Of a stretch of 64,000 nucleotides of DNA, positions 3,961 through 53,391 are shown in pieces. The stretch comes from an uncultured delta proteobacterium. Its GTDB lineage: Bacteria > Desulfobacterota > Binatia > Binatales > Binataceae. The notes below the pieces were generated by a model. The model had not been told where the DNA came from, made no database searches, and saw nothing but the letters and a program-made list of their open reading frames with translations. The position numbers and the translations under genes were made by a program. Numbering within the stretch: position 1 is the stretch's first letter; every line of letters starts with the position of its first letter. Where the stretch lies: contig CAVWMC010000003.1 of NCBI GenBank assembly GCA_963756005.1, positions 261,158-325,157 on the forward strand, read 5' to 3'.

Positions 3961-4119
3961 GTCATCCCGACGAAGCGAAGCAACACGAGCGGCATAAAGA
4001 ATCTCGGACAGCAGCGCGCAGTTCCTGCCATCCTGACGACGGGAGCGTAAGCGACGGGAGGAACGGATCTCGGACAGCTTCGCGTACGCGAAGCCGGTTC
4101 CGGTCTCTGAAATCGCGCA
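3961..4119. repeat. intergenic repeat family C, copy 1 (inverse orientation relative to copy 2)
   Basis: The 57-bp core CTGCGCGATTTCAGAGACCGGAACCGGCTTCGCGTACGCGAAGCTGTCCGAGATCC is present as its reverse complement, with GTCATCC(T/C)GAC motifs. It is near-identical to 30890..30946. Confidence 0.8.
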
Positions 4120-4132
4120 GCGCTCCTTATTC

Positions 4133-11000: not shown

Positions 11001-11455
11001 TCATGCGCGACCGGCGCGCCGAACAGCGCGAAAATCCCGTCGCCGGTGGACTGCACGATGTAACCGTCGTAGCGATGCATCGCGTCGATCATCAGCTTCA
11101 GCGCCGGATCGACAATCGCCCGCGCCTCTTCCGGATCGAGCCTCTCCATCAGGTCCATCGATCCCTTGATATCCGCGAACAGCGCCGTCACCGTCTTGCG
11201 CTCACCGCCCGACGCGTCCGCCGCGTCCTGCTCCATCCGCACGCGCACCGCCGGCTCGACCACAGCCGCGGGAGCTCTGACGCTCGCGACGGCTTCCCGA
11301 GCCACCGTCAACGCCGCCCCGCATTCCCCGCAAAATTTAAACTCGGGCGAATTTTCCAACCCGCAGCGCGAACACCGATTCCGCAGCGCAGCCCCACACC
11401 CGCCACAAAACTTCATCCCCCCCGGATTTTCGGTCCCGCAACTCGAACATCGCAT
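8063..11455 (-). CDS. signal-transduction STAND protein: double zinc ribbon, class III adenylyl/guanylyl cyclase domain, AAA(AAA_16-like) NTPase and TPR repeats (1130 aa)
   Basis: Two N-terminal CxxC..CxxC ribbons. Cyclase homology domain (TALFADIKGS...GDGIFALFGAP). Walker A GVGKSR. C-terminal TPR-like helical repeats. Confidence 0.85.
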   Translation of the reverse strand: MRCSSCGTENPGGMKFCGGCGAALRNRCSRCGLENSPEFKFCGECGAALTVAREAVASVRAPAAVVEPAVRVRMEQDAADASGGERKTVTALFADIKGSMDLMERLDPEEARAIVDPALKLMIDAMHRYDGYIVQSTGDGIFALFGAPVAHEDHAQRGLYAALRVQEDMARYSAGLRAQGSPPVEIRVGLNTGEVVVRSIRTDDAHTEYTPIGHSMSLAARMQTLAPTGSIVITEQTQKLTAGYFELKALGPARIKGVSEPINVYEVLGIGPLRTRLQMSASRGLSKFVGRRAELEQLDQALELARGGHGQIVAAMAEAGVGKSRLFHEFKMRRQAECLVLEAFSFSHGKASAYLPVVDLLKSYFRIADRDDARTRREKVTGKVLALDRALEDTLPHLFALLGIPAGDARLDEMDASIRRRRTREAVKSLIVRESLNQPLILIFEDLHWVDAESEALLNLMADSIGTAQILMMVNYRPEYRHNWGNKTYYTQMRLDPLGRDNAAELLSAMIGDDRAIDSLKAAIIERTQGNPFFMEEMVQVLFDQGVLVRDGAAVSMAKPLTSIEIPSTVKGILAARIDKLAPADKDLLQSLAVIGKEFPVGLVRRVVGKSDEELAPMLANLQAAEFIYEQPAFPENEYTFKHALTQEVAYDSVLMQRRRIIHERTATALEETFAATLDDHVAELAHHYSRSANAPKAVEYLTHAAEQAAIRSAYSDAIGYAREALRVIATMPEARERDHRELQIQMMLGPLIVSTQGLSSPEVSVTIARAQELCRRAGETPEIFGVMFALWSFKHASGQLPESRAIAEQLLAMAGRVDSDLATASAHNALAATQLWMGEFTAAQENSEQTIKIFDRDIPRYLPMMNAPVIPSRCNAVWAFHIGGRLGQAKRRLAEAEELASQLRRPFSIAFVHLHTIVLNHFRQEYAEVRTRSETLIELSTEYGFPYWLTAGKMCLARTIAGEAYIRGDQPALEAGLAMMKESIVNLAAANADLIYSFSFVLLAEVYLMMKRPDEALRELEMARQRADQMGHRLLEAEIHRLRGETMLTLPNGEDEAERCFRRAIEIAVRQEARSWELRAATSLARLLIRSGRSDEARATLAPVFAQFTEGFETGDLREAKALLEELEV

Positions 11456-11516
11456 AGCAAATGAGTTTATCCCGCCGCTTCGGTTAGACCCAACCGGCCA
11501 AATTCGAACGCGCGAA

Positions 11517-11752
11517 TCCTAACCTCTCCTTGTCCGAGGAGAGGTCGGCGAAAGCCGCGCAGCGGTGTCGCCGGGAGAGGTGCAACGCCGGACACTCTAG
11601 TTACCTCAACTCGTCTAACCGCAATTGCACGATACTGGTCCGGCGCTCGACAGCGGCACAACTACGCGCAGTTGCGACTGCCAGCGTCGTACCTCTCCCG
11701 TCGTTCGCCTTCGGCTCGCGCCGACCTCTCCTCGGACAAGGAGAGGTTAGGA
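11517..11752. repeat. TIR-flanked palindromic element, family A, copy 1 (MITE-like)
   Basis: 34-bp terminal inverted repeats TCCTAACCTCTCCTTGTCCGAGGAGAGGTCGGCG / CGCCGACCTCTCCTCGGACAAGGAGAGGTTAGGA. Internal complementary arms GGGAGAGGTGCAACG / CGTTGCACCTC. About 85-90% identical to the copies at 14365 and 48568. Confidence 0.85.
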
Positions 11753-11769
11753 ATCAAGATACTGCGAGC

Positions 11770-12456
11770 TCACCACTTCAACCCCATCGCTTCGGTCAGG
11801 AACTTCATGAACGGCGCCGACGACGCGCACGCCTTCGAAAACAAATCCATGAACTCCGCCGAGCAGACTTCCTTGCGCGTGAACTCCGTGCCGCCGATGA
11901 AGTCCTTGCGCTTGAGATCTTCGATCAGCGGATGCGCCGGGTCGTAGCCCTTCGGCGGACGCGACAGCATGTCGCCCATCAGCTCGAATCGCGCCTTGAA
12001 TTTGCGATCGTTCACCGCGCTCTTCCACTTCGATGGGTGCGCGACGATCGCGGCGCGAATCTTCGCGGTCGTGTCCGCCTGCGGATGCCACACGCCAACG
12101 CCCGCGAACGCTTCCGCCGGCGACAGCGACAGGTAGAACGACGGCGAATTGAAATGCATTCCGTCGCGATGCCCGAACGCCGCCGACGCGTTGATGTGAT
12201 ACGGCGTCTTGTCGCGCGAGAAGCGCAGATTGCGGTAGATACGCATCATCGATCCGCCGCTCGGCCGCGGATCGGCGACGTAGCGCGCACTGATTTTGCG
12301 CAAGCGCGGCGCGAAATCCGCGATAAACGCCAGCATCGGCTCGCGCACGTCGCGTTCGTAGCGCGGCTTGTTCGGCATAAACCAGTCGCGATTGTTGTTG
12401 CGGCTCAGCTCCTCGAAGAACTCGAAAAATCGCGGAGTGAAATAACCCTGCGCCAT
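11770..12456 (-). CDS. DUF2461 / TIGR02453 family conserved hypothetical protein
   Basis: Motifs RIYRNLRFSRDKTPY and FYLSLSP are characteristic of DUF2461. Start chosen at MAQGYF; the track ORF extends to 12654. Confidence 0.65.
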   Translation of the reverse strand: MAQGYFTPRFFEFFEELSRNNNRDWFMPNKPRYERDVREPMLAFIADFAPRLRKISARYVADPRPSGGSMMRIYRNLRFSRDKTPYHINASAAFGHRDGMHFNSPSFYLSLSPAEAFAGVGVWHPQADTTAKIRAAIVAHPSKWKSAVNDRKFKARFELMGDMLSRPPKGYDPAHPLIEDLKRKDFIGGTEFTRKEVCSAEFMDLFSKACASSAPFMKFLTEAMGLKW

Positions 12457-12467
12457 CGCCCGCGAAC

Positions 12468-13310
12468 TCACGCCTGGATGAATTCGTTGAAAATTTTGAA
12501 GAAGCGCTCCGGCTGATCGCGATGCACCCCGTGGCCGGCGTTCGCGAACACTTCGAGCCGCGCCACACCCGGCGTCATCGCCGCCGCAATATCCTTCGAG
12601 TCGGCCACCGGCAGAATTGGATCGAGTTCGCCCGCGGTAATCAGCGTCGGGCATTTTATTTTTTTAAGCTCGGGCAGCAAGTTGAAGGTGTGCGATTCGT
12701 GCAGAAAAAAATCCGCCGTCAGCTTCGGGTTCATCACCGCCCGCTGCATGAACTCGGGCGGCGACGGCGTCCGGTTGTACAGCGGCAGACACTTCTTCTG
12801 ATATTCGGCCATCGCCTCCGGCCCCGGACTCTCGAAAAATCGCCGCGCCATTTCGCGCACTTCCGCCCCGCCCAGCTTCTCGAACATCTCGAGCGATCGC
12901 TCCTGCCGCGACACCGCCGCCGTGCTGCTCAACACCAGCTTGCCCGGATGCTCCGGATGACGCGTCGCGTACGACATCGCAACCATCCCGCCGAACGACA
13001 CGCCGAGCACGACCGGGTGCTCGATCTCGAGCGCCTCGCAAAACGCGCGCACGTCGTCGCCCCATTGCGGCAGATTCCATTTCGCCGGATCGCCGTGATC
13101 GCTGCGCCCGTTCCCGCGATGGTCGAGATACACAACTTGCGCGTTCTCCGCGAGGCGCGAGAAATCGGGCTTGAAGTTGGAATGATCGAAGCCGGGGCCG
13201 CCGTGCAGCAGGATGACCGTCGGCACCTCGCGCATCTTCGCGCCGTCGGGCCGCAGCTTCGCGCCTTCCACGTCGAAGAACAATCGAACGTCGCCAATTT
13301 TTACGCGCAT
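12468..13310 (-). CDS. alpha/beta hydrolase (prolyl aminopeptidase-like)
   Basis: LLHGGPG HG-box and the GVSFGG nucleophile elbow. Confidence 0.85.
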   Translation of the reverse strand: MRVKIGDVRLFFDVEGAKLRPDGAKMREVPTVILLHGGPGFDHSNFKPDFSRLAENAQVVYLDHRGNGRSDHGDPAKWNLPQWGDDVRAFCEALEIEHPVVLGVSFGGMVAMSYATRHPEHPGKLVLSSTAAVSRQERSLEMFEKLGGAEVREMARRFFESPGPEAMAEYQKKCLPLYNRTPSPPEFMQRAVMNPKLTADFFLHESHTFNLLPELKKIKCPTLITAGELDPILPVADSKDIAAAMTPGVARLEVFANAGHGVHRDQPERFFKIFNEFIQA

Positions 13311-13346
13311 CGGCGGATTCTAACGCGAACCTTCGCGCGGTGCAAA

Positions 13347-13577
13347 CTACCTTTCGATGCGCAAATGGAAGACGCCGTCGCGCGCCGTTGCTTCGAGCAC
13401 CACGTAGCCTTCGGCCTCCGCGGCCCCGGGAATGTCGCGAGCGCCGCGCGGATCGTCGAGCGTCAAGTCGAGCACCTCGCCGCGCGCCATCTGCTCGAGT
13501 CGCACCTTCGCCCGCGCCCAGTTGAGCGGACACTTGACCCCTCGCAGGTCGAGGCGAACAGTTTCGCGCGCTTTCAT
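13347..13577 (-). CDS. TusA-like sulfurtransferase (SirA/YedF/YeeD family)
   Basis: LDLRGVKCP conserved Cys motif, ~76 aa two-layer alpha/beta size. Start chosen at MKARETV. Confidence 0.7.
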   Translation of the reverse strand: MKARETVRLDLRGVKCPLNWARAKVRLEQMARGEVLDLTLDDPRGARDIPGAAEAEGYVVLEATARDGVFHLRIER

Positions 13578-13643
13578 CCCAACCAGATTCTTACCACATC
13601 GCGCGCCCGTGAATCCGCCGCGCCAAATCGCTATGCTGGCGCG

Positions 13644-14345
13644 ATGTTCCTCGAAAGTCCCGAGCTCTACGACGCCATCTACCACTTCAAGAATTACAAG
13701 CATGAGTGCGAGATTCTGCGCGCCGTGATCGCGGTCGCCGCACCGGGCGCGCGCACGATTCTCGACGTCGCCTGCGGCACCGGCGAGCACGACAAATTTC
13801 TCAAGGATCATTACTCAGTTGACGGCGTCGATCTCAACGAAAATTATCTGCGCGCCGCGCGCGTCAAAAATCCCGCCGGCCGCTACACGCATGCCGACAT
13901 GACCGAGTTCGATTTGGCGACAACTTACGACGCCGTGACCTGCCTCTTCAGCGCGATCGGCTACGTCCGCACCGTCGCTCGCATGACTCGCGCGGTCGCA
14001 TGCATGGCGCGCCACGTCAAGCCGGGCGGCGTGCTCATCATCGAGCCGTGGATTACTCCGGAAAATTGGAAGCCCGGCAACTCCTTCATTCACCCCGGCG
14101 AAATCGGCGCCGACAAAGTCGTCCGCATGAGCCTGAGCGGCCGCGAAGGCAACCTGTCGTTCACGCTCATGCACTATCTAAGGAGCACGCCCACTGGCAT
14201 CGAGCATTACAGCGAACGCCTCGAGCTCGGCTTGTTCACCCGCGAAGAAATGACGCACGCCTTCGACTCCGCGAACATGAACGTGCGCTACGACACCGAA
14301 GGCCTGATGGGCCGCGGCCTCTACATCGCCCACAAGCGCCCGTAG
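13644..14345 (+). CDS. class I SAM-dependent methyltransferase (TylM1/DesVI-like sugar N-methyltransferase fold)
   Basis: YDAIYHF, ILDVACGTGEH (motif I) and VKPGGVLIIEPW motifs. The upstream part of track ORF 12522.. is antisense noise. Confidence 0.8.
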   Translation: MFLESPELYDAIYHFKNYKHECEILRAVIAVAAPGARTILDVACGTGEHDKFLKDHYSVDGVDLNENYLRAARVKNPAGRYTHADMTEFDLATTYDAVTCLFSAIGYVRTVARMTRAVACMARHVKPGGVLIIEPWITPENWKPGNSFIHPGEIGADKVVRMSLSGREGNLSFTLMHYLRSTPTGIEHYSERLELGLFTREEMTHAFDSANMNVRYDTEGLMGRGLYIAHKRP

Positions 14346-14364
14346 AAATTCGGCCTCGCCTGGA

Positions 14365-14558
14365 TCCTAACCTCTCCTTGTCCGAGGAGAGGTCGGCGTA
14401 AGCCGCGTAGCGGTGTCGCCGGGAGAGGTACCACGCCAGGCACTGCACCAATCCCAACTCGTTTAACCCCAATGCGCAGACACTGGTCCGCGTTGCACCT
14501 CGCCCGTCGCTCACCTTCGGCTCGCGCCGACCTCTCCTCGGACAAGGAGACGTTAGGA
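14365..14558. repeat. TIR-flanked palindromic element, family A, copy 2 (shorter; internal ~40-bp deletion)
   Basis: Same 34-bp TIRs as copy 1. Sits between convergent gene ends. Confidence 0.85.
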
Positions 14559-14599
14559 TCAGGGCGCCTCGCAATTTCTTTTGGCGCCGGACGTGACCG

Positions 14600-15070
14600 T
14601 TACACCTTGCGGCTTTGACCCTTCGCTTCCGCCCACCCCTGCTTCAGCGGGACCACGTGATGGAAAAATAATTTGCGCTCGACAAAGCGCCAGCGGCCGC
14701 GCTCGCGCCGATATTTGTCTTCGTAGTAGCCCGCCGCCGTGACGCTTTCGCCGTTGCGCGCGAAGCGCGCCTCGATCGCGCAGGTGCCGTGCGCTTCGTC
14801 GCCTTTCAGCTCGATGATGTGATTCTGGATAAACGGCAACGCCACTTCCGGTTCGCGCACCGACGCGCGATAAAACTTCAGGATCGCCTCGCGCCCGCGC
14901 ACCGCCTTGAAGTCGCCGCCGGTCACGTCGAGCACGCCGTCGTCGGCGAACAGATTCGCGACAGCCTCGCCCTCGCCGTGCGCGACGTGCCAGCAGTAGC
15001 GCGCGGTCAGCTCCTTGATTTCGTCGCGATCCTCCAGTTCCTGAACGCGTTGCTCGATTGATTTGGCCAT
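14600..15070 (-). CDS. NTF2-like / SnoaL-like domain protein
   Basis: Size and sequence pattern of the nuclear-transport-factor-2-like superfamily (DUF4440/SnoaL_2-like). Confidence 0.6.
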   Translation of the reverse strand: MAKSIEQRVQELEDRDEIKELTARYCWHVAHGEGEAVANLFADDGVLDVTGGDFKAVRGREAILKFYRASVREPEVALPFIQNHIIELKGDEAHGTCAIEARFARNGESVTAAGYYEDKYRRERGRWRFVERKLFFHHVVPLKQGWAEAKGQSRKV

Positions 15071-23947: not shown

Positions 23948-24059
23948 CACTTTATTTAATGTGAAACCCGCGGTGGGTTTCACGCTTCCTTCGGCAGGGC
24001 TAAGCCCTGCACCTTAGCGAATAAAGAAATCGCGGAATGTCGAGGACGACATTTCGCTC
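23948..24059. repeat. triple-hairpin intergenic element, family B, copy 1
   Basis: Three stem-loops: GAAACCC-gcggt-GGGTTTC; GCAGGG-ctaa-CCCTGC; AATGTCG-agga-CGACATT. Shared with 26582 and, for the first two hairpins, 56694. Confidence 0.8.
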
Positions 24060-26581: not shown

Positions 26582-26690
26582 CACTTTATTTTATGTGAAA
26601 CCCTCCGCGGGTTTCACGCTTCCGCGGCATGGGTGACCCCTGCACCCAGTGATAAGAAAATCGCGAAGTGGCGAGGACGCCATTTCGCTC
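26582..26690. repeat. triple-hairpin intergenic element, family B, copy 2
   Basis: Stems are conserved but loops and some stem pairs differ (AAGTGGCG..CGCCATTT vs AATGTCG..CGACATT). Followed by further hairpins at 26708..26760 and a GGGTTAGG palindrome at 26805..26838. Confidence 0.8.
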
Positions 26691-26833
26691 AAAGGTTCTT
26701 TTCCTGTGTCATTCAGAGCGCAGCGAAGAATCCCGGTGCCGATTCTTTCTCCGCGTGACTGTTCCCGTTCCCGCTCAGGAAGTGATCACTCCAAATGACC
26801 GGTTCCCCTTCCCGCGCGGGAAGGGGTTAGGGG

Positions 26834-27424
26834 TTAGGTTGTCTTCGACATCAGTACGGTTTCGACGCCGCGCGAGTCGCGGCGGCGCACGACGATGCCT
26901 GAATCGTCGAGCTCGATTTCTTCCGCATCACCCATGCGCGGCTCGTAAATCCACAGATGCGGATCGTTACCGCGCTGGCGGCATGACTGCTTGCTGGTGG
27001 CGGCGACGAGGGTGTTCGGATCGATTGCGGCGATGCGCCCGGTCCATCGCGTCTGCCCGCGATCGCGAATGTGCGCGATCGTCAGCGCGCGGAAGATGAC
27101 GAGGTCGGCATCGACTTCGCCGTAGCGGCCGAGTTTGGTCGTAAGGTCATTGCGGCTGCCGCCGGTGCTGATGTTGCCGCGCAGGAAGCTGTCGATCGAT
27201 TCGTAACTGGCGTGGCGGGTGAACGGGCCGCGATTGTAGCTGGCGGTGACGCTGCGCACGAGGCCGGCGTCGTCGAGCCACGCTTCGACTTCGTACACAT
27301 TGGAGCCGCTGGCAGGACGGCGGCTGCCGTGAATCCTGCCCCATGCGAGCGTTTCAGTTTCGACCGCAAGCAACTCGCCGGCGCGGCGGATGTCGTAGCG
27401 GAACTCGCCGTCGGCGATCAGCAT
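26834..27424 (-). CDS. hypothetical protein
   Basis: 196-aa ORF with protein-like composition. The opposing ORF is Ala/Gly-rich antisense noise. No domain recognised. Confidence 0.45.
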   Translation of the reverse strand: MLIADGEFRYDIRRAGELLAVETETLAWGRIHGSRRPASGSNVYEVEAWLDDAGLVRSVTASYNRGPFTRHASYESIDSFLRGNISTGGSRNDLTTKLGRYGEVDADLVIFRALTIAHIRDRGQTRWTGRIAAIDPNTLVAATSKQSCRQRGNDPHLWIYEPRMGDAEEIELDDSGIVVRRRDSRGVETVLMSKTT

Positions 27425-30878: not shown

Positions 30879-30889
30879 GGGATCGGACC

Positions 30890-31088
30890 GCTGCGCGATT
30901 TCAGAGACCGGAACCGGCTTCGCGTGCGCGAAGCTGTCCGAGATCCTTCCTGCCGCTCGCGATGCTCGCTCTGTCAGGATGACACACGCGCTCGCGCTTC
31001 TGCTTCGTCAGGATGACACACAGACGCTCGCGCTTCTGGTTCGTCAGGGTGACACGCATACGCTCGCGCTGCTGCTTGGTCAGGATTA
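30890..31088. repeat. intergenic repeat family C, copy 2, with 3.5 tandem ~37-bp units
   Basis: 57-bp core shared with 3961..4119, followed by tandem CGTCAGGATGACACAC(G)CGCTCGCGCTTCTGCTT units. Confidence 0.8.
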
Positions 31089-31107
31089 GAGAGAGGGCGC
31101 CGGAACT

Positions 31108-46244: not shown

Positions 46245-47260
46245 CGCCGCTCCGTCATCCTTCTGATTCCCTCCTCCCACGTTGGAGGAGGGTTAGGGTG
46301 GAGGACCAAACCGTTCGATTGTCCGTCGCCGCACATCGGAATACCAGAAACTTTGGTCCTCCACCCGACGCTCGAAGACGAGCGTCGGCCTCCCCCATCG
46401 AAAGGGGAGGCAAAGATCGAAAAGATCAGCGGAGCTTGCGCGTCACCAGCATCGCGATGCGATACGTGAAATACATCTCGCCATCGATTCTTGCTGGACG
46501 CGCGCCGCTCAGATCTTCCACCGCGTCCCGCTCGACCATCGCAATCGCCTTCGCAGCCCGCTCCGGCGACGCATTCGCCGCCTTTGATCCATTGCGACAC
46601 CGGCGTGCGGTAGCCGTGCGACGTGAATCGCACAATCTCCAGCCCAGCGTCGCCCATCATCTTGATCAACTCGCTCATCGCGAGCGCGCTGGTATGCGAG
46701 GTGTCGCGCAGCCGCTCGAACTCGTTGTAGTACGCGGCGCGCTCCGGCTGTTCGCTCGCAATCAAATCCTCGATCGCCACCAATCCGTCAGCCCGGCACA
46801 CGCGCGCCATCTCGGCAATCACCTTCCGCGGCTCTGCGAAATGATGGACCGCGAAACGGCACACGACGACATCGAATTCGTGATCCTTGAACGGCAGCCG
46901 CGACTCGACGTCGCCCTTCTGGAAACTGACGTTGGTGATTCCCCGCTCCGCGCGCATATTCTCGGCAATAGCGAGCGGCGCGTCGGTCAAGTCGATACCG
47001 ACGACTTCGCGGCAGACCTGTGCAAACGCCATCGCGACATGCCCCGGCCCGGTCGCGACTTCGAGCACGCGCGCCTCGCGCGGCGGCGCGACAATCTCGA
47101 CCAGCTTGCGCAGATGATCGGCGTCGCGAATCGCGGGCGCGGTCGCGTAGTCGTTGGCCTGCCGGGTGAATTCTTCGCGGACCAGATTTTTGTGCTCGAT
47201 ATGTTCCATTGCGGCCATTGTCGCGGTTCCCGCGCACGAATCAAGCGCGCGCGGCCGCAC
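46241..47260 (-). CDS. class I SAM-dependent methyltransferase (UbiE/COQ5-like) with an unusual ~100-aa C-terminal extension
   Basis: VLEVATGPGH motif I, FDVVVCRFAVHH. The last ~50 codons run through the hairpin cluster 46262..46412. Confidence 0.75.
   Translation of the reverse strand: MRPRALDSCAGTATMAAMEHIEHKNLVREEFTRQANDYATAPAIRDADHLRKLVEIVAPPREARVLEVATGPGHVAMAFAQVCREVVGIDLTDAPLAIAENMRAERGITNVSFQKGDVESRLPFKDHEFDVVVCRFAVHHFAEPRKVIAEMARVCRADGLVAIEDLIASEQPERAAYYNEFERLRDTSHTSALAMSELIKMMGDAGLEIVRFTSHGYRTPVSQWIKGGECVAGAGCEGDCDGRAGRGGRSERRASSKNRWRDVFHVSHRDAGDAQAPLIFSIFASPFDGGGRRSSSSVGWRTKVSGIPMCGDGQSNGLVLHPNPPPTWEEGIRRMTERR
46262..46412. repeat. cluster of four consecutive perfect hairpins including a GGGTTAGGGTG motif
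   Basis: CCCTCCTCC-cacgtt-GGAGGAGGG. A 14-bp stem GGTGGAGGACCAAA...TTTGGTCCTCCACC. CGACGCTCG-aaga-CGAGCGTCG. GCCTCCCC...GGGGAGGC. Confidence 0.8.
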
Positions 47261-47364: not shown

Positions 47365-48492
47365 TTGGATTTCGGATTTTCTGAAGAACAAGAGATGCTT
47401 CGGGACGCGGCCAAGCGCTTTCTGGCCGACAACTGCCCGACCAAGTTTGTCCGCCAGCAAATGGCGGACGCCACTGCGCACGACGCCGGCTTCTGGAAAA
47501 AGCTGGTCGAACTCGGATGGCCCGGCTTGCTCATCCCCGAAGAATACGGCGGCCAGGGCGGCAGCTTCCTCGACATGACGGTGATCGTCGAAGAGGCGGG
47601 CAAGGCGCTGGTGCCGGGACCGCTGTTCACCTCCGCCCTGCTCGCGGCGCCGCTGTTGATTGAAGGCGGCTCCGACCAGCAGAAGAAAGACATCCTGCCG
47701 CGGATGGCGAAGGGCGAGTTTATCGGTACCGTCGCAATCGCCGAGGCCGCCGGCCGCTTCGACGCCGAGGGAATCCAGCTCAAGGCGACCAAGTCCGGCA
47801 AGGAATACACCATTACCGGCGAGAAATTCTTCGTGCCCGATGCGCACGTCGCCAACGGGATGGCGGTCGCGGTCCGCACCGGCGGTAGCGGCGAAAAGGG
47901 CATCACGATCCTGGCGATGAACGCCAAGGCGCCGGGCATCACGATCACTCAGCTCAAGACCGTCGATATGACGCGGCGGCTATGCCACGTGAAATTCGAC
48001 AATGTGAAAACCTCGGAAGTCATCGGCAAGGAAAGCGAGGGATGGCCGATTCTGCGGCGCACGCTCGACATCGCAACCGCGGGGCTCGCGGCCGAGATGG
48101 TTGGGACGGCGCAGAAGGCGCTCGACATGTCGGTCGATTACGCCAAGACCCGCGTGCAATTCGGCAAGCCGATCGGATCGTTCCAGGCCGTCAAGCACAA
48201 GTGCGTCGATATGATGGTCGCGGTCGAGAACGCGCGCTCGCTGACCTACTACGCGTGCTGGACGGTAGATACCAAAGGCGCGGAAGCACAGACCGCGGTG
48301 CCGATGGCGAAAGCGTACGCGTCGGACATGGCGAAGAACGTCACGTCGGAAGCAATCCAGGTCCACGGCGGCATCGGCTTCACCTGGGAGCACGACATGC
48401 ACCTGTACCATCGCCGCGCCCTGGCCGGCGAAGCAAACTTCGGCAACGCCCCGGTGCATAGAGAGACGGTCGCAAAGTCGCTGCTCGGCTGA
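47365..48492 (+). CDS. acyl-CoA dehydrogenase family protein
   Basis: Three-domain ACAD pattern. FAD/substrate region IPEEYGGQG. Confidence 0.9.
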   Translation: MDFGFSEEQEMLRDAAKRFLADNCPTKFVRQQMADATAHDAGFWKKLVELGWPGLLIPEEYGGQGGSFLDMTVIVEEAGKALVPGPLFTSALLAAPLLIEGGSDQQKKDILPRMAKGEFIGTVAIAEAAGRFDAEGIQLKATKSGKEYTITGEKFFVPDAHVANGMAVAVRTGGSGEKGITILAMNAKAPGITITQLKTVDMTRRLCHVKFDNVKTSEVIGKESEGWPILRRTLDIATAGLAAEMVGTAQKALDMSVDYAKTRVQFGKPIGSFQAVKHKCVDMMVAVENARSLTYYACWTVDTKGAEAQTAVPMAKAYASDMAKNVTSEAIQVHGGIGFTWEHDMHLYHRRALAGEANFGNAPVHRETVAKSLLG

Positions 48493-48567
48493 TCGCGACG
48501 AGTTGAAGATCGATAGAGGGCCGCGGGCGATTAACCCGCGGCCCTCGATTTTTCTCTTCGCGCGTTC

Positions 48568-48806
48568 TCCTAACCTCCCTTGTCCGAGGGGAGGTCGGCG
48601 TAAGCCGCTTGAAAAGCGGTGTTGCCGGGAGAGGTGCAACGCCTGACACCGCACCGACCCCGACTCGTTTAATCGCAATTGAGAGAAACTATTCCGCCGC
48701 CCGACGGCAGCACAACTACGCGCAGTTGTAGCGGCGCGCGTTGCACCTCGCCCGTCGCGCCCCTTCGGCGCGCGCCGACCTCTCCTCGGACAAGGAGAGG
48801 TTAGGA
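48568..48806. repeat. TIR-flanked palindromic element, family A, copy 3
   Basis: Same TIRs with minor variants (CTCCC / GGGGAG). Sits between convergent gene ends. Confidence 0.85.
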
Positions 48807-48839
48807 ATCTCGCTGCGACCAAGAACTATCGCGACGAAC

Positions 48840-50222
48840 CTACGCGATGGCTTTTGATTTTTCTGCTTCGGCGGCGGCGCTCCGCGCCGCTAGGCGGTCG
48901 CGCATGGCGCGGTGGCTTTCGCGCGTGATTGGGTAGCGTGAGAAGACCAGCGCGCTCATCAGGTAGATCGACGCGGGGCCGATTGCGAACAGCGCGCGCA
49001 GATGTTCGCCCGCTTGCGGCGTGATTGCGCCGCCGCCCGGCTTGTAACCGACCCAGCTCAGGACCGGACCGACCAGCAGCAGCGAGACTGCGATCGCCAG
49101 CTTGATCGACATCGAAGTTATTCCGCCGTACGCGCCTTCCTGGCGCTGGCCGGTGCGCTCCTCGTCCCATTCGATCACGTCGGCCGCCGCCGAGATTTGC
49201 GTGACCCAGATTCCGATCGCCGAGAAGCCGCTGAACGCGAACAGCAGGTAAAGGCCAAGCGCGCTCTGCACGCTCATCAGCATGAACCCGAGCGAGCCGA
49301 TCGCGTTGCAGATAATCGCGGCCACGAAGGCCGGCTTCTTTTCAAACCTGACGGTCATCCTGAACCAGAACGGATACGAGATGACCGAGCCGGCGAAGTA
49401 TGCCATCAGCCATCGCGCCGCCGCGTTCTCGTCGTGATACCAGTACTTGGCCAGGAAGCGGATCAGCACGGTCGGAATGTTGATCGCCATCACGGCCAGG
49501 GTCGTGGCGATCAGCAGGATGACGAACGGCCGGTTGCCGGCGACTGATTTGAGCGAGGCCCACAGCTTCGAGCGCTCGAGCGTCGAAAACTCAGCGCGCT
49601 CGCGCAGTCCCGCGTACGCGACCATCGCGCCGCCGGCGACGACCAACCCGCAAATAGCGCCCGTCACTTTGAAGTCGGTGCCGCGCGCGAACAGGTAGGT
49701 CGCCGCAAACGGCAGCAGCGCGCCGCTGATGTCGCCGACGGTGCCGAGCAACTGCCGAAAGGTCGAGAGCCTGGTGCGTTCGTCGTAGTCGAGCGTAAGT
49801 TCAGGCATCAGCGCGCCGTACGCGGTCTCGTAAAACTTGCGCGACGTGAGCATCAGGAAGTAGAAGCCGAAGAACCAAACGAACAGGCCGGCGTGCAGCC
49901 GCGGCGGCGACAGCAGCAGGTAGTAGCAGACCGCCATCGGAATCGACGCGAAGAAAAACGGCCGGCGGCGGCCCGATTTGAAGCGCGCGCGATCGGAAAT
50001 ATTGCCGACCAGCGGGTCGGTCACCGCGTCGAGCACCAGCGCGAGAAAGAAAGCAAGCCCGGCCAGCGATGGAGAGAGGCCCATCCGATCGCTATAAAAA
50101 TAGAGCAGGTGAAGCCCGAGCAGGGTCGCGCAAAGGTTGAGGCCGGTCTGCGCCTGCGCGTAGATTAGCAGGGGACGAAGGCCAATCTTCTCGCTTGAAT
50201 CCCGGATTGCCACAGTCCGCAA
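48840..50222 (-). CDS. MFS transporter, glycoside-pentoside-hexuronide (GPH) family-like
   Basis: 12-TM pattern and the GPH-type motif DAVTDPLVGNISDR. Confidence 0.85.
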   Translation of the reverse strand: MRTVAIRDSSEKIGLRPLLIYAQAQTGLNLCATLLGLHLLYFYSDRMGLSPSLAGLAFFLALVLDAVTDPLVGNISDRARFKSGRRRPFFFASIPMAVCYYLLLSPPRLHAGLFVWFFGFYFLMLTSRKFYETAYGALMPELTLDYDERTRLSTFRQLLGTVGDISGALLPFAATYLFARGTDFKVTGAICGLVVAGGAMVAYAGLRERAEFSTLERSKLWASLKSVAGNRPFVILLIATTLAVMAINIPTVLIRFLAKYWYHDENAAARWLMAYFAGSVISYPFWFRMTVRFEKKPAFVAAIICNAIGSLGFMLMSVQSALGLYLLFAFSGFSAIGIWVTQISAAADVIEWDEERTGQRQEGAYGGITSMSIKLAIAVSLLLVGPVLSWVGYKPGGGAITPQAGEHLRALFAIGPASIYLMSALVFSRYPITRESHRAMRDRLAARSAAAEAEKSKAIA

Positions 50223-53011: not shown

Positions 53012-53391
53012 ACCCTAACCCCTAACCCCTTCCCCAGGAAGAATGGGGAAGGGGAACAAAGTCAGGGAAATCGGTCCCGTCCTATCCCCCTAACCCCCTT
53101 TCCAGCATGGAAAGGGAGAACAGAAAATCCGGTCCCGAAGGCCTTTCCAATATCGAACGGGGGAACGGAAAAATCAGTCCCGAAGGACCTTTCCAGCAGA
53201 AGGCGGAACAGAGATGTCCTATCTCGCCAACTCGCTTTGCAGAATGGATAGGAGCGACCCGAAGCTCTTGTGCGTGTTCCCCCTTTCCGAACCGGAAAGG
53301 GGGTGAGCGGGATAGGACGGCGTGCGCCCGGATGTTTCTCCTAGTTCCCCTTCCCCAGTTTTTCCTGGGGAAGGGGTCAGGGGTTAGGGTG
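53012..53391. repeat. ~380-bp nested palindromic element, family D
   Basis: Termini CCCTAACCCCTAACCCCTTCCCCAGG / CCTGGGGAAGGGGTCAGGGGTTAGGG. Three internal ~50-bp tandem units (CCTTTCCAG...GGAAAGGG hairpins). Confidence 0.8.

Follow-up and report, generated by a model that had tools for sequence, protein, structure and literature searches.

BoxC repeats of Escherichia coli are said to go back to Bergler (1992) and Bachellier (1999). Motifs of the same type were later described as PIT (potential intrastrand triplex) elements (Hoyne & Maher 2000) and as TMECO (Holder et al. 2015; PMC4666352). E. coli K-12 has 23 TMECO copies, always intergenic and without strand bias, among them five inverted pairs, each composed of one type A and one type B motif; no associated mobility gene, origin, or function was found (PMC4666352). 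Work from the Maher group, to the extent that PMC4666352 cites it, detected no promoter or terminator activity for PIT/BoxC in E. coli. Here, we focus on family A, a repeat with hairpin ends that is present in three copies in a 64,000-nt stretch of DNA from an uncultured Binataceae bacterium (contig CAVWMC010000003.1, positions 261,158 to 325,157; hereafter, the window). We are fairly confident that the repeat is dispersed, non-autonomous, and mobile over evolutionary time, with BoxC-like hairpin ends, each of which is individually maintained, and that its gene-bearing relatives encode only a DUF559 protein that is under selection. The explanation we favor, with moderate confidence, is that family A comprises non-autonomous versions of a small selfish Binatia element; the full form of this element carries a DUF559 nuclease gene, which the family A copies lack.

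Architecture, abundance, and turnover of family A

The three copies in the window all read on the + strand. Copy 1 (11517..11752) is a full-length, gene-less element of 236 nt that covers positions 1-266 of the family profile and scores 228 bits on the + strand versus 111 on the - strand. Copy 3 (48568..48806, 239 nt) is likewise full-length (profile positions 1-266, 234 bits). Copy 2 (14365..14558, 194 nt) retains both ends and both arms and lacks approximately 42 nt, including the central hairpin; its profile match comes in two pieces, 1-130 and 194-266. An earlier note, made from the letters of the window alone, had described three copies at these positions with near-identical inverted 34-nt ends and a deletion inside copy 2, all of which we confirm. 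The 33-nt end CCTAACCTCTCCTTGTCCGAGGAGAGGTCGGCG has five matches with at most three mismatches, versus zero expected. The sixth end, on the left of copy 3, carries a 1-nt deletion and a compensating A>G change that together keep the hairpin.

Copy 1 displays all parts of the element. Its left end, TCCTAACC, leads into the terminal hairpin ACCTCTCCTT-GTCC-GAGGAGAGGT (together 11517..11545), which is followed by the left arm hairpin GGCGAAAGCCGC-GCA-GCGGTGTCGCC (11546..11572) and an inner purine box, GGGAGAGGTGCAACGC (11573..11588). This box occupies nearly invariant columns of the family alignment, pairs with the inner pyrimidine box GCGTCGTACCTCTCCC (11684..11699), and could be the third block of a BoxC-like motif. 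Next come a conserved non-palindromic segment, GACA..CA..ACTCGTCTAA (11591..11620), whose columns are nearly invariant in 76 copies, and the central hairpin CACAACT-ACGC-GCAGTTG (11657..11674), which is the most variable part of the family. In gene-less copies, the central hairpin sits in the place that the gene takes in gene-bearing relatives. Past the pyrimidine box, a right arm hairpin with a CTTCGG loop (11700..11723) precedes the right end, a terminal hairpin followed by GGTTAGGA (11724..11752), which is an inverted copy of 11517-11545. The complementary boxes (GGGAGAGGTGCAACGC / GCGTTGCACCTC.CCC) and the central CACAACTACGCGCAGTTG hairpin that the earlier note singled out are present in copies 1 and 3. 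The inverted ends measure 34-44 nt and are 93% complementary in copy 1. Folding of either strand (z = -12.5 and -11.0 versus shuffled sequence) bears out the proposal that the whole element can form a single long stem.

Family A extends far beyond the window. A scan of species-representative genomes with the end core CTTGTCCGAGGRGAGGTCGG yielded at least 103 loci, nearly all of them in Candidatus Binatus/Binataceae metagenome-assembled genomes; hits in other phyla are few, no more than chance or mis-binning would produce. Exact + and - end matches lie 190-240 nt apart, and from these pairs we built the family profile. In the 8-kb blocks around the hits, the profile found at least 77 non-redundant full-length copies in at least 17 genomes, along with many partial ones, among the loci listed. 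The copies have polarity: with approximately 230 bits in the forward direction and approximately 110 in reverse, their orientation is unambiguous. The left half presents TCCTAACC, the invariant terminal hairpin, the variable second hairpin, the GGGAGAGGTGCAAC box, and the GACA..ACTCGTCTAA stretch, in that order; the right half presents the variable central hairpin, the complementary box, the CTTCGG-loop hairpin, the terminal hairpin, and GGTTAGGA. The end pattern also appears on two IMG/VR "viral" contigs (L197:5406-5618 and L198:11657-11676; comparison loci are given L numbers), one of which has a complete pair.

What is conserved at each end is its own hairpin. At the variable pair of the end stem, 122 of 165 ends have T-A, 34 have C-G, and 9 have another combination, so that the position is paired within its own end in 156 of 165 cases. 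Compared across an element, left end against right, this position forms a Watson-Crick pair in only 57 of 76. It is the hairpin of each end that is maintained and not left-right complementarity, and the left and right ends of a single element are often different variants. The second, or arm, hairpin likewise retains its pairing throughout the family while occurring in at least five different sequences at the same position (for example, GGCGCCAACCGAAGGTGGCGCC, GCCGCGCGCCGGAGGAGCGCGGC, and GGCGCGATTCCTATCGCGCC). The earlier note had judged each end to be a hairpin, which stands, and had named covariation as a sign of structured RNA. In long-range consensus folding, the stems are almost invariant and covariation is uninformative save at one position, which covaries inside each end and speaks for local hairpins more than for left-right pairing.

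Two syntenic empty sites tie the family to movement. For copy 3, locus L193 shares the convergent genes (87% and 91-94% protein identity) and the terminator hairpin of the window, and its 100-nt spacer contains no element; the element is present at this site in the window, L027, and L095. For copy 1, L196 has the DUF2461 and cyclase genes separated by a 51-nt spacer that is free of the element, which is present in the window and, as a positional orthologue, in L049 (L049:675-914). The copy 3 insertion point lies just past the T run of the terminator, with a few extra bases on one side and no duplication. Other candidate empty sites were uninformative. Specifically, synteny is lost around more distant orthologues of the MFS gene that neighbors copy 3 (L185-L192), L194 has a different neighbor, and L195 has an IS1595 insertion. 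In this last locus, an IS1595-family transposase (L195:2350-3381) directly follows the DUF2461 orthologue, where the window has copy 1.

Copies are also exchanged in place. The copy 3 orthologues L027:2842-3104 and L095:1674-1937 lie inverted with respect to their flanks and differ from copy 3 in the interior. In a single case, a gene-less copy (L002:3060-3321) and a gene-bearing one (L051/L107) occupy one orthologous site in opposite orientation. For 39 of 77 copies, the nearest relative resides in the same genome, versus approximately 8 by chance as estimated from per-genome copy counts, and copies at orthologous positions are not mutual nearest relatives. This pattern of similarity points to conversion or replacement among copies.

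The earlier note had offered a non-autonomous element like a miniature inverted-repeat transposable element (MITE) as one reading, and family A is only partly such an element and not a classical one. Many copies, terminal inverted repeats, syntenic empty sites, and a longer partner with the same arms all agree with the idea. Of these properties, the copy number and the empty sites, with the small size and the near-perfect match of the long terminal repeats, are what a classical MITE would display if a DDE transposase recognized the 34-bp repeats and cut and pasted the element. Such an enzyme should, however, leave target-site duplications of 2-8 bp, and in 51 copies none exists at any boundary (offsets -20 to -4, symmetric and asymmetric, k = 2-8; no excess over permutations), nor is one visible in the pair of empty and filled copy 3 sites. 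Conservation fades outward over approximately 10 bases (TAACC 95%, TCC approximately 75%, GA approximately 50%, CC approximately 45%), the opposite of a sharp cleaved terminus, and the frequent mismatch of left and right end variants likewise speaks against a DDE enzyme. No transposase was seen in the approximately 110 loci with family A ends, of which the genome scan contributed at least 103 as loci and not as whole genomes. The longer partner that the earlier note proposed exists, but among the loci listed its only gene encodes a DUF559/Vsr-like nuclease and not a transposase. We regard DDE-driven cut-and-paste as the least probable of the explanations weighed here.

The DUF559 gene between the arms

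Eleven longer relatives share the family A arms, and each bears a gene for a DUF559/Vsr-like PD-(D/E)XK nuclease of 112-120 aa. All 11 retrieved genes of this clade adjoin family A arms. In L051, an end pair 565 nt apart encloses a frameshifted open reading frame, and in L068 and L080 an intact homologue lies directly downstream of a family A left arm. A scan of metagenomes with the protein added eight closer relatives (L104-L111; 69-85% identity), with family A arms beside the gene in all eight. Standard family A ends surround the DUF559 reading frame in L051/L107, L109, and L111; in L051/L107 both arms are inverted repeats of approximately 125 nt. A left arm stands upstream of the gene in L068, L080, L104, L106, L108, and L110, the last of which ends within the gene and shows the left arm alone. 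In L104, L106, and L108, the right end reads CCTCTCCC-TAA-CCCTCTCC-loop-GGAGAGGG, in which TAA is the stop codon of the gene. In L105, family A arm sequence is confined to the downstream side of the gene, where a gene-less element has the CCTCTCCC-TAA motif as its right end. Tandem arrangements also occur in L106 and L108, where the gene-bearing element is followed by a short gene-less one whose left arm is of the family A type and whose right end is of the CCTCTCCC-TAA type. This suggests a second gene-less subfamily of approximately 190 nt, which may lie behind many of the "half" profile matches.

The enclosed reading frames match Pfam DUF559 with E = 4e-32 to 7e-41, their best NCBIfam model is E. 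coli YcjD, and their sole solved relative is 3HRL, an uncharacterized "endonuclease-like protein." The D/E-x-D/H residues of the catalytic motif are common to the clade and to YcjD. Ten of the 11 reading frames are intact, L051 being the frameshifted one. Among nine intact genes compared pairwise, the median ratio of nonsynonymous to synonymous substitution (dN/dS) is 0.13, with dS > 1 and synonymous sites saturated. The core of the flanking ends is invariant despite this saturation; the ends are therefore under stronger constraint than the silent sites of the gene they enclose. A survey of PD-(D/E)XK enzymes grouped DUF559 with Vsr and with a group I intron homing endonuclease in a single clade, without assigning it a role (PMC3424549). 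PADLOC returned weak matches to methyl-directed restriction enzymes and no sign of a defense system.

In gene-bearing relatives, the conserved non-palindromic segment (GACA..TCTAAT) precedes the DUF559 start codon by 35-65 nt, and one guess is that it serves as a promoter. As a sigma-70 promoter it would fit only with a 19-nt spacer, so the assignment is no more than a guess. A sigma-70 consensus scan around copy 3 (window 48300-49000) flagged nothing inside the element. A second, distant DUF559 gene (37% identity) is present in a Binatia genome at L027:5329-5634, framed by its own inverted pair, CCCCTCGCCATTTATGGAGAGGG and TTAGGGGAGAGGTC. A single genome can thus host several DUF559/hairpin lineages.

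How might a DUF559 gene and a dispersed repeat have become joined? One answer, the main competitor to our own although we consider it unlikely, is that DUF559 is a free-standing gene of the homing-endonuclease type that invaded a pre-existing hairpin repeat as its homing site, while the repeat spread by other means. The occurrence of gene-bearing and gene-less forms at one orthologous site (L002 versus L051/L107) agrees with this proposal, as do the constant position of the gene at the apex between the arms, the rarity of gene-bearing copies, and the membership of a group I intron homing endonuclease in the Vsr/DUF559 clade (PMC3424549). The supposed homing site, however, would be the center of gene-less copies, which is the least conserved part of the element. 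Moreover, the junction between arm and gene differs by lineage (profile position approximately 124 in L107 versus approximately 147-159 in L068/L104), and the dispersal of the repeat is left unexplained.

A second answer places the enzyme elsewhere in the genome. Family A could be a REPIN-like doublet of REP-type hairpins mobilized by a RAYT, an HUH Y1 transposase encoded at another location. Two inverted hairpin ends, intergenic placement, homogenization within genomes, conservation of each end's own hairpin, and a lack of target-site duplications would all be expected of such doublets. But no RAYT lies between or beside family A ends in approximately 110 loci, DUF559 is the only gene found inside, and the conserved 5' tetranucleotide of the GTAG type is absent. 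We judge a RAYT-driven origin to be very improbable.

In the explanation we favor, the full form consists of two long inverted arms around one DUF559 gene of 112-120 aa. Each arm comprises TCCTAACC, the invariant terminal hairpin of 9-10 bp, a second, variable hairpin, and the GGGAGAGGT box; short copies retain the arms, with a small hairpin in place of the gene. That the DUF559 nuclease is the enzyme that mobilizes family A is a more tentative proposal, which we place somewhat below an even chance. In this scheme, DUF559 would recognize the BoxC/PIT-like end motif, a hairpin plus G/C block that is probably extruded as a hairpin or cruciform, and would nick there. The element would then be copied to new intergenic sites, or over resident copies, via repair or recombination and without target duplication, a mode of spread nearer to homing or to REPINs than to cut-and-paste transposition. 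Copies without the gene would depend on a nuclease supplied in trans. Landing just past stop codons or terminators would do little harm, and no host function would be needed. Such nicking, with subsequent repair or recombination, would account for the missing target-site duplications, the inversion of copies in place, and their homogenization.

Several points weigh against this explanation. We infer from sequence that DUF559 binds and cuts the ends, and the DUF559 family is without demonstrated function. A terminus cut by an enzyme would not usually show so gradual a decay of conservation. Few copies bear the gene (3 of approximately 100 genome loci among the matches listed), and the gene could have entered a pre-existing repeat secondarily. 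Beyond the loci listed, family A ends might also frame other enzymes, such as a RAYT or a DDE transposase. The presence and absence of the element at L193 and L196 could formally reflect precise deletions. Approximately 10 orthologous sites are all occupied between species with 79-93% identical flanks, so most copies are old and stable. Finally, remnants of the ycjD 3' end, discussed below, are not found at the other E. coli TMECO sites and occur in only 1-2 places per genome, so that E. coli offers no sign of dispersed, decayed DUF559 copies.

Gene context and the question of host function

The flanking genes in the window are as first described: copy 1 has the stop of the DUF2461 gene on one side and the start of the guanylate-cyclase/AAA_16/TPR gene on the other, and copies 2 and 3 are flanked by convergent open reading frames. 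The further claim that family A copies all lie at gene 3' ends carries over to the family only in part. Copies are close to stop codons, with a median distance of 32 nt. By crude codon-position gene calls, which underlie all of these context statistics, 66 copies fall into 20 convergent, 38 tandem, and 8 divergent intergenic regions, versus a background of 19%, 64%, and 17%. Convergent regions are thus enriched (30% versus 19%), but the share of copies that face at least one gene 3' end, 88% of 66, is little above the 83% expected from adjacent gene pairs.

Proximity to stop codons and enrichment in convergent regions would suit a structured element selected by the host, namely a bidirectional terminator, a stabilizer of mRNA 3' ends, or a noncoding RNA of benefit to its neighbors. 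The very stable fold, the retention of copies at orthologous sites, and ends that are better conserved than the surrounding intergenic DNA are in line with such a role. An element with an asymmetric interior that acts on its neighbors should be oriented, yet 36 copies are co-directional with the upstream gene and 42 are opposite. Mispairs are symmetric (31 G-U versus 28 A-C), giving no sign of the constraint on a single strand that an RNA would impose. Rfam searches gave no match, either for the whole window with the gathering threshold or, at E<=1, for 11400-14700, which includes copies 1 and 2. No T run follows the terminal hairpins. Copy 3 has an independent terminator beside it: 21 nt before it on the + strand lies the canonical intrinsic terminator of the upstream gene (48516..48546), a GC stem with a T run that is not part of the element and that is kept with the element in L027 and L095 and without it in L193. 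Syntenic sites that lack the element also count against a host role, as does the reported lack of promoter and terminator activity of PIT/BoxC in E. coli, insofar as PMC4666352 cites it. The suggestion in the earlier note of a bidirectional terminator or noncoding RNA family is thus not supported, and we consider host selection improbable. The context is a better fit for a tolerated selfish insertion than for a terminator or an oriented RNA. Taken together, the RAYT-driven, DDE-driven, and host-function explanations are less likely than the homing-type alternative.

Two observations concern reading frames near such hairpins. Upstream of copy 2, an open reading frame of 607 aa (window 12522-14345) has two partial, methyltransferase-like homologues with 38% coverage in a very large protein database, and it may be miscalled or fused. 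Hairpins of this kind presumably also create spurious reading-frame ends of the "PSPxGRG" type.

BoxC-like ends, other DUF559 genes, and known mobile repeats

The earlier note recognized no named family. The composite element is indeed distinct, but its end motif belongs to the BoxC/PIT/TMECO type described in E. coli. Every family A end reads CCTCTCC-TTGTCCGA-GGAGAGG; that is, a pyrimidine block, a loop, and the complementary purine block. In the known motif, a third G-rich or C-rich block sits beside the hairpin, separated from it by a 3-nt loop of TTA or CCG, and may allow an intrastrand triplex. Outside, the TTA is present and the third block is cut down to GGA / TCC; inside, the GGGAGAGGT box lies approximately 28 nt from the terminal hairpin, across the second hairpin.

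Hairpin repeats also frame DUF559 genes outside Binatia family A. We surveyed 70 DUF559 genes from diverse metagenomes (46-89% identity) for inverted repeats with a score of at least 16 within 300 nt on each side. Such repeats frame 46 of the 70 genes (66%) versus 0 of 53 shifted controls, and they always consist of a hairpin plus a block of the GGGTGAGGG or GGTTAGGG type. In E. coli K-12 (L184, NC_000913 1351040-1351830), the DUF559 gene ycjD ends its frame inside a CCCTCTCCC hairpin. Downstream of it come the remains of another DUF559 3' end and then the TMECO CCCCTCTGGGGAGAGGGTTAGGGTGAGGGG, just upstream of fabI. BoxC was reportedly first identified in this ycjD-fabI region. Complete E. coli genomes vary at this locus: only 3378 of 5426 (62%) contain the ycjD 3' end.

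The window itself holds further repeats of related form. A canonical type A motif, CCCCTTCCC-GCGC-GGGAAGGGG-TTA-GGGGTTAGG, lies at 26805-26838. Approximately 160 nt away is a 52-nt double-hairpin repeat (TGAAACCC..GGGTTTCA plus GCAGGG..CCCTGC) that also occurs at 23962 and 56695; the motif and the repeat may be the ends of one element of approximately 243 nt (26596-26838). At 46268-46412, a further canonical example, an inverted BoxC/PIT-like pair, has the left end CCCTCCTCC-CACGTT-GGAGGAGGG-TTA-GGGTGGAGG and a right end composed of CCTCCACCC, the hairpin GACGCTCGAAGACGAGCGTC, and then CCTCCCC-CATCGAAA-GGGGAGG. One end thus has a TTA loop and the other a hairpin loop, as in gene-bearing family A, and the hairpin-loop end has the layout of a family A arm. 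Nested inverted pairs occupy 53012-53390, with telomere-like outer ends ACCCTAACCCCTAACCCC and a CCCCTTCCCC hairpin around an inner pair of CCCCCTAACC and a CCCTTTCC hairpin; here, one hairpin element has probably inserted into another. Finally, a 76-nt inverted repeat, 89% complementary, has its arms 26.8 kb apart (4051-4126 and 30885-30960), and three tandem 36-nt units stand beside the second arm (30982-31089).

BoxC/PIT/TMECO repeats have been catalogued since the 1990s, and DUF559 is a very large protein family that has a solved structure (3HRL) but is not known to have any role. The two can now be tied together. The family A arms around DUF559, the site shared by gene-bearing and gene-less forms, and the framing of 66% of surveyed genes lead us to speculate, with less assurance than we attach to DUF559 as the mobilizing enzyme of family A, that DUF559 proteins are the enzymes behind BoxC, PIT, and "triplex-motif" repeats. 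At the same low level of assurance, these repeats would belong to a widespread, unrecognized class of bacterial selfish elements that cause no target duplication. Each such element would consist of one Vsr-like PD-(D/E)XK gene framed by hairpin-plus-G-block motifs and would shed derivatives, such as family A and the TMECO pairs of E. coli. In E. coli, the DUF559 gene ycjD is variably present and abuts a TMECO. Our literature search, which was incomplete, found no work linking DUF559/YcjD (PF04480) to these repeats, and novelty is unproven. If the hypothesis is correct, there exists a class of mobile elements built on an enzyme of the restriction-endonuclease fold and not on a DDE, HUH, or serine/tyrosine recombinase. 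For genome annotation, the link between DUF559 and these repeats would account for a good part of the conserved hairpins between genes in Binatia and other soil phyla.

Family A can be compared with several known systems. Like BoxC/PIT/TMECO repeats, it is intergenic and without strand or orientation bias, it frequently consists of inverted pairs of different motif type, and its ends share the pyrimidine block, loop, and purine block and resemble the motif in the TTA (in type A) and, in shortened or displaced form, in the further G-rich block. The right end of gene-bearing family A, CCTCTCCC-TAA-CCCTCTCC-loop-GGAGAGGG, reads as a type A motif on the C-rich strand and may be able to form a triplex. 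Unlike the 37-nt published motif, however, family A is a composite of 190-270 nt with conserved arms and interior, and a second hairpin, where the motif has a 3-nt loop, separates its inner third block from the terminal hairpin. No mobility gene is reported for the known repeats (PMC4666352), whereas relatives of family A contain a DUF559 gene.

Analogous likenesses and differences emerge for the mobile repeats. With REPIN/REP and RAYT systems, family A shares inverted doublets of hairpin units that form a larger hairpin, intergenic location, the absence of target-site duplications, populations within genomes, and non-autonomous copies that would be served by a single-copy gene. It differs in that its gene encodes a PD-(D/E)XK DUF559 nuclease and not an HUH Y1 transposase, in that it lacks a GTAG-type tetranucleotide, and in its long, conserved spacer. 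MITEs such as Correia/CREE, RUP, and ERIC resemble family A in size, terminal inverted repeats, whole-element hairpin, intergenic dispersal, and insertion polymorphism; by contrast, family A has no target-site duplication, no sharply bounded ends, and no known transposase-bearing parent. Finally, homing endonuclease genes, including the Vsr-like I-Bth0305I family, offer a small nuclease gene of the same structural clade (PMC3424549) that is present or absent at a conserved site and causes no target-site duplication, and the spread of family A would, like theirs, be mediated by repair. Homing endonuclease genes differ from family A in having no long inverted hairpin arms and in not giving rise to hundreds of derivatives without the gene at unrelated intergenic positions.

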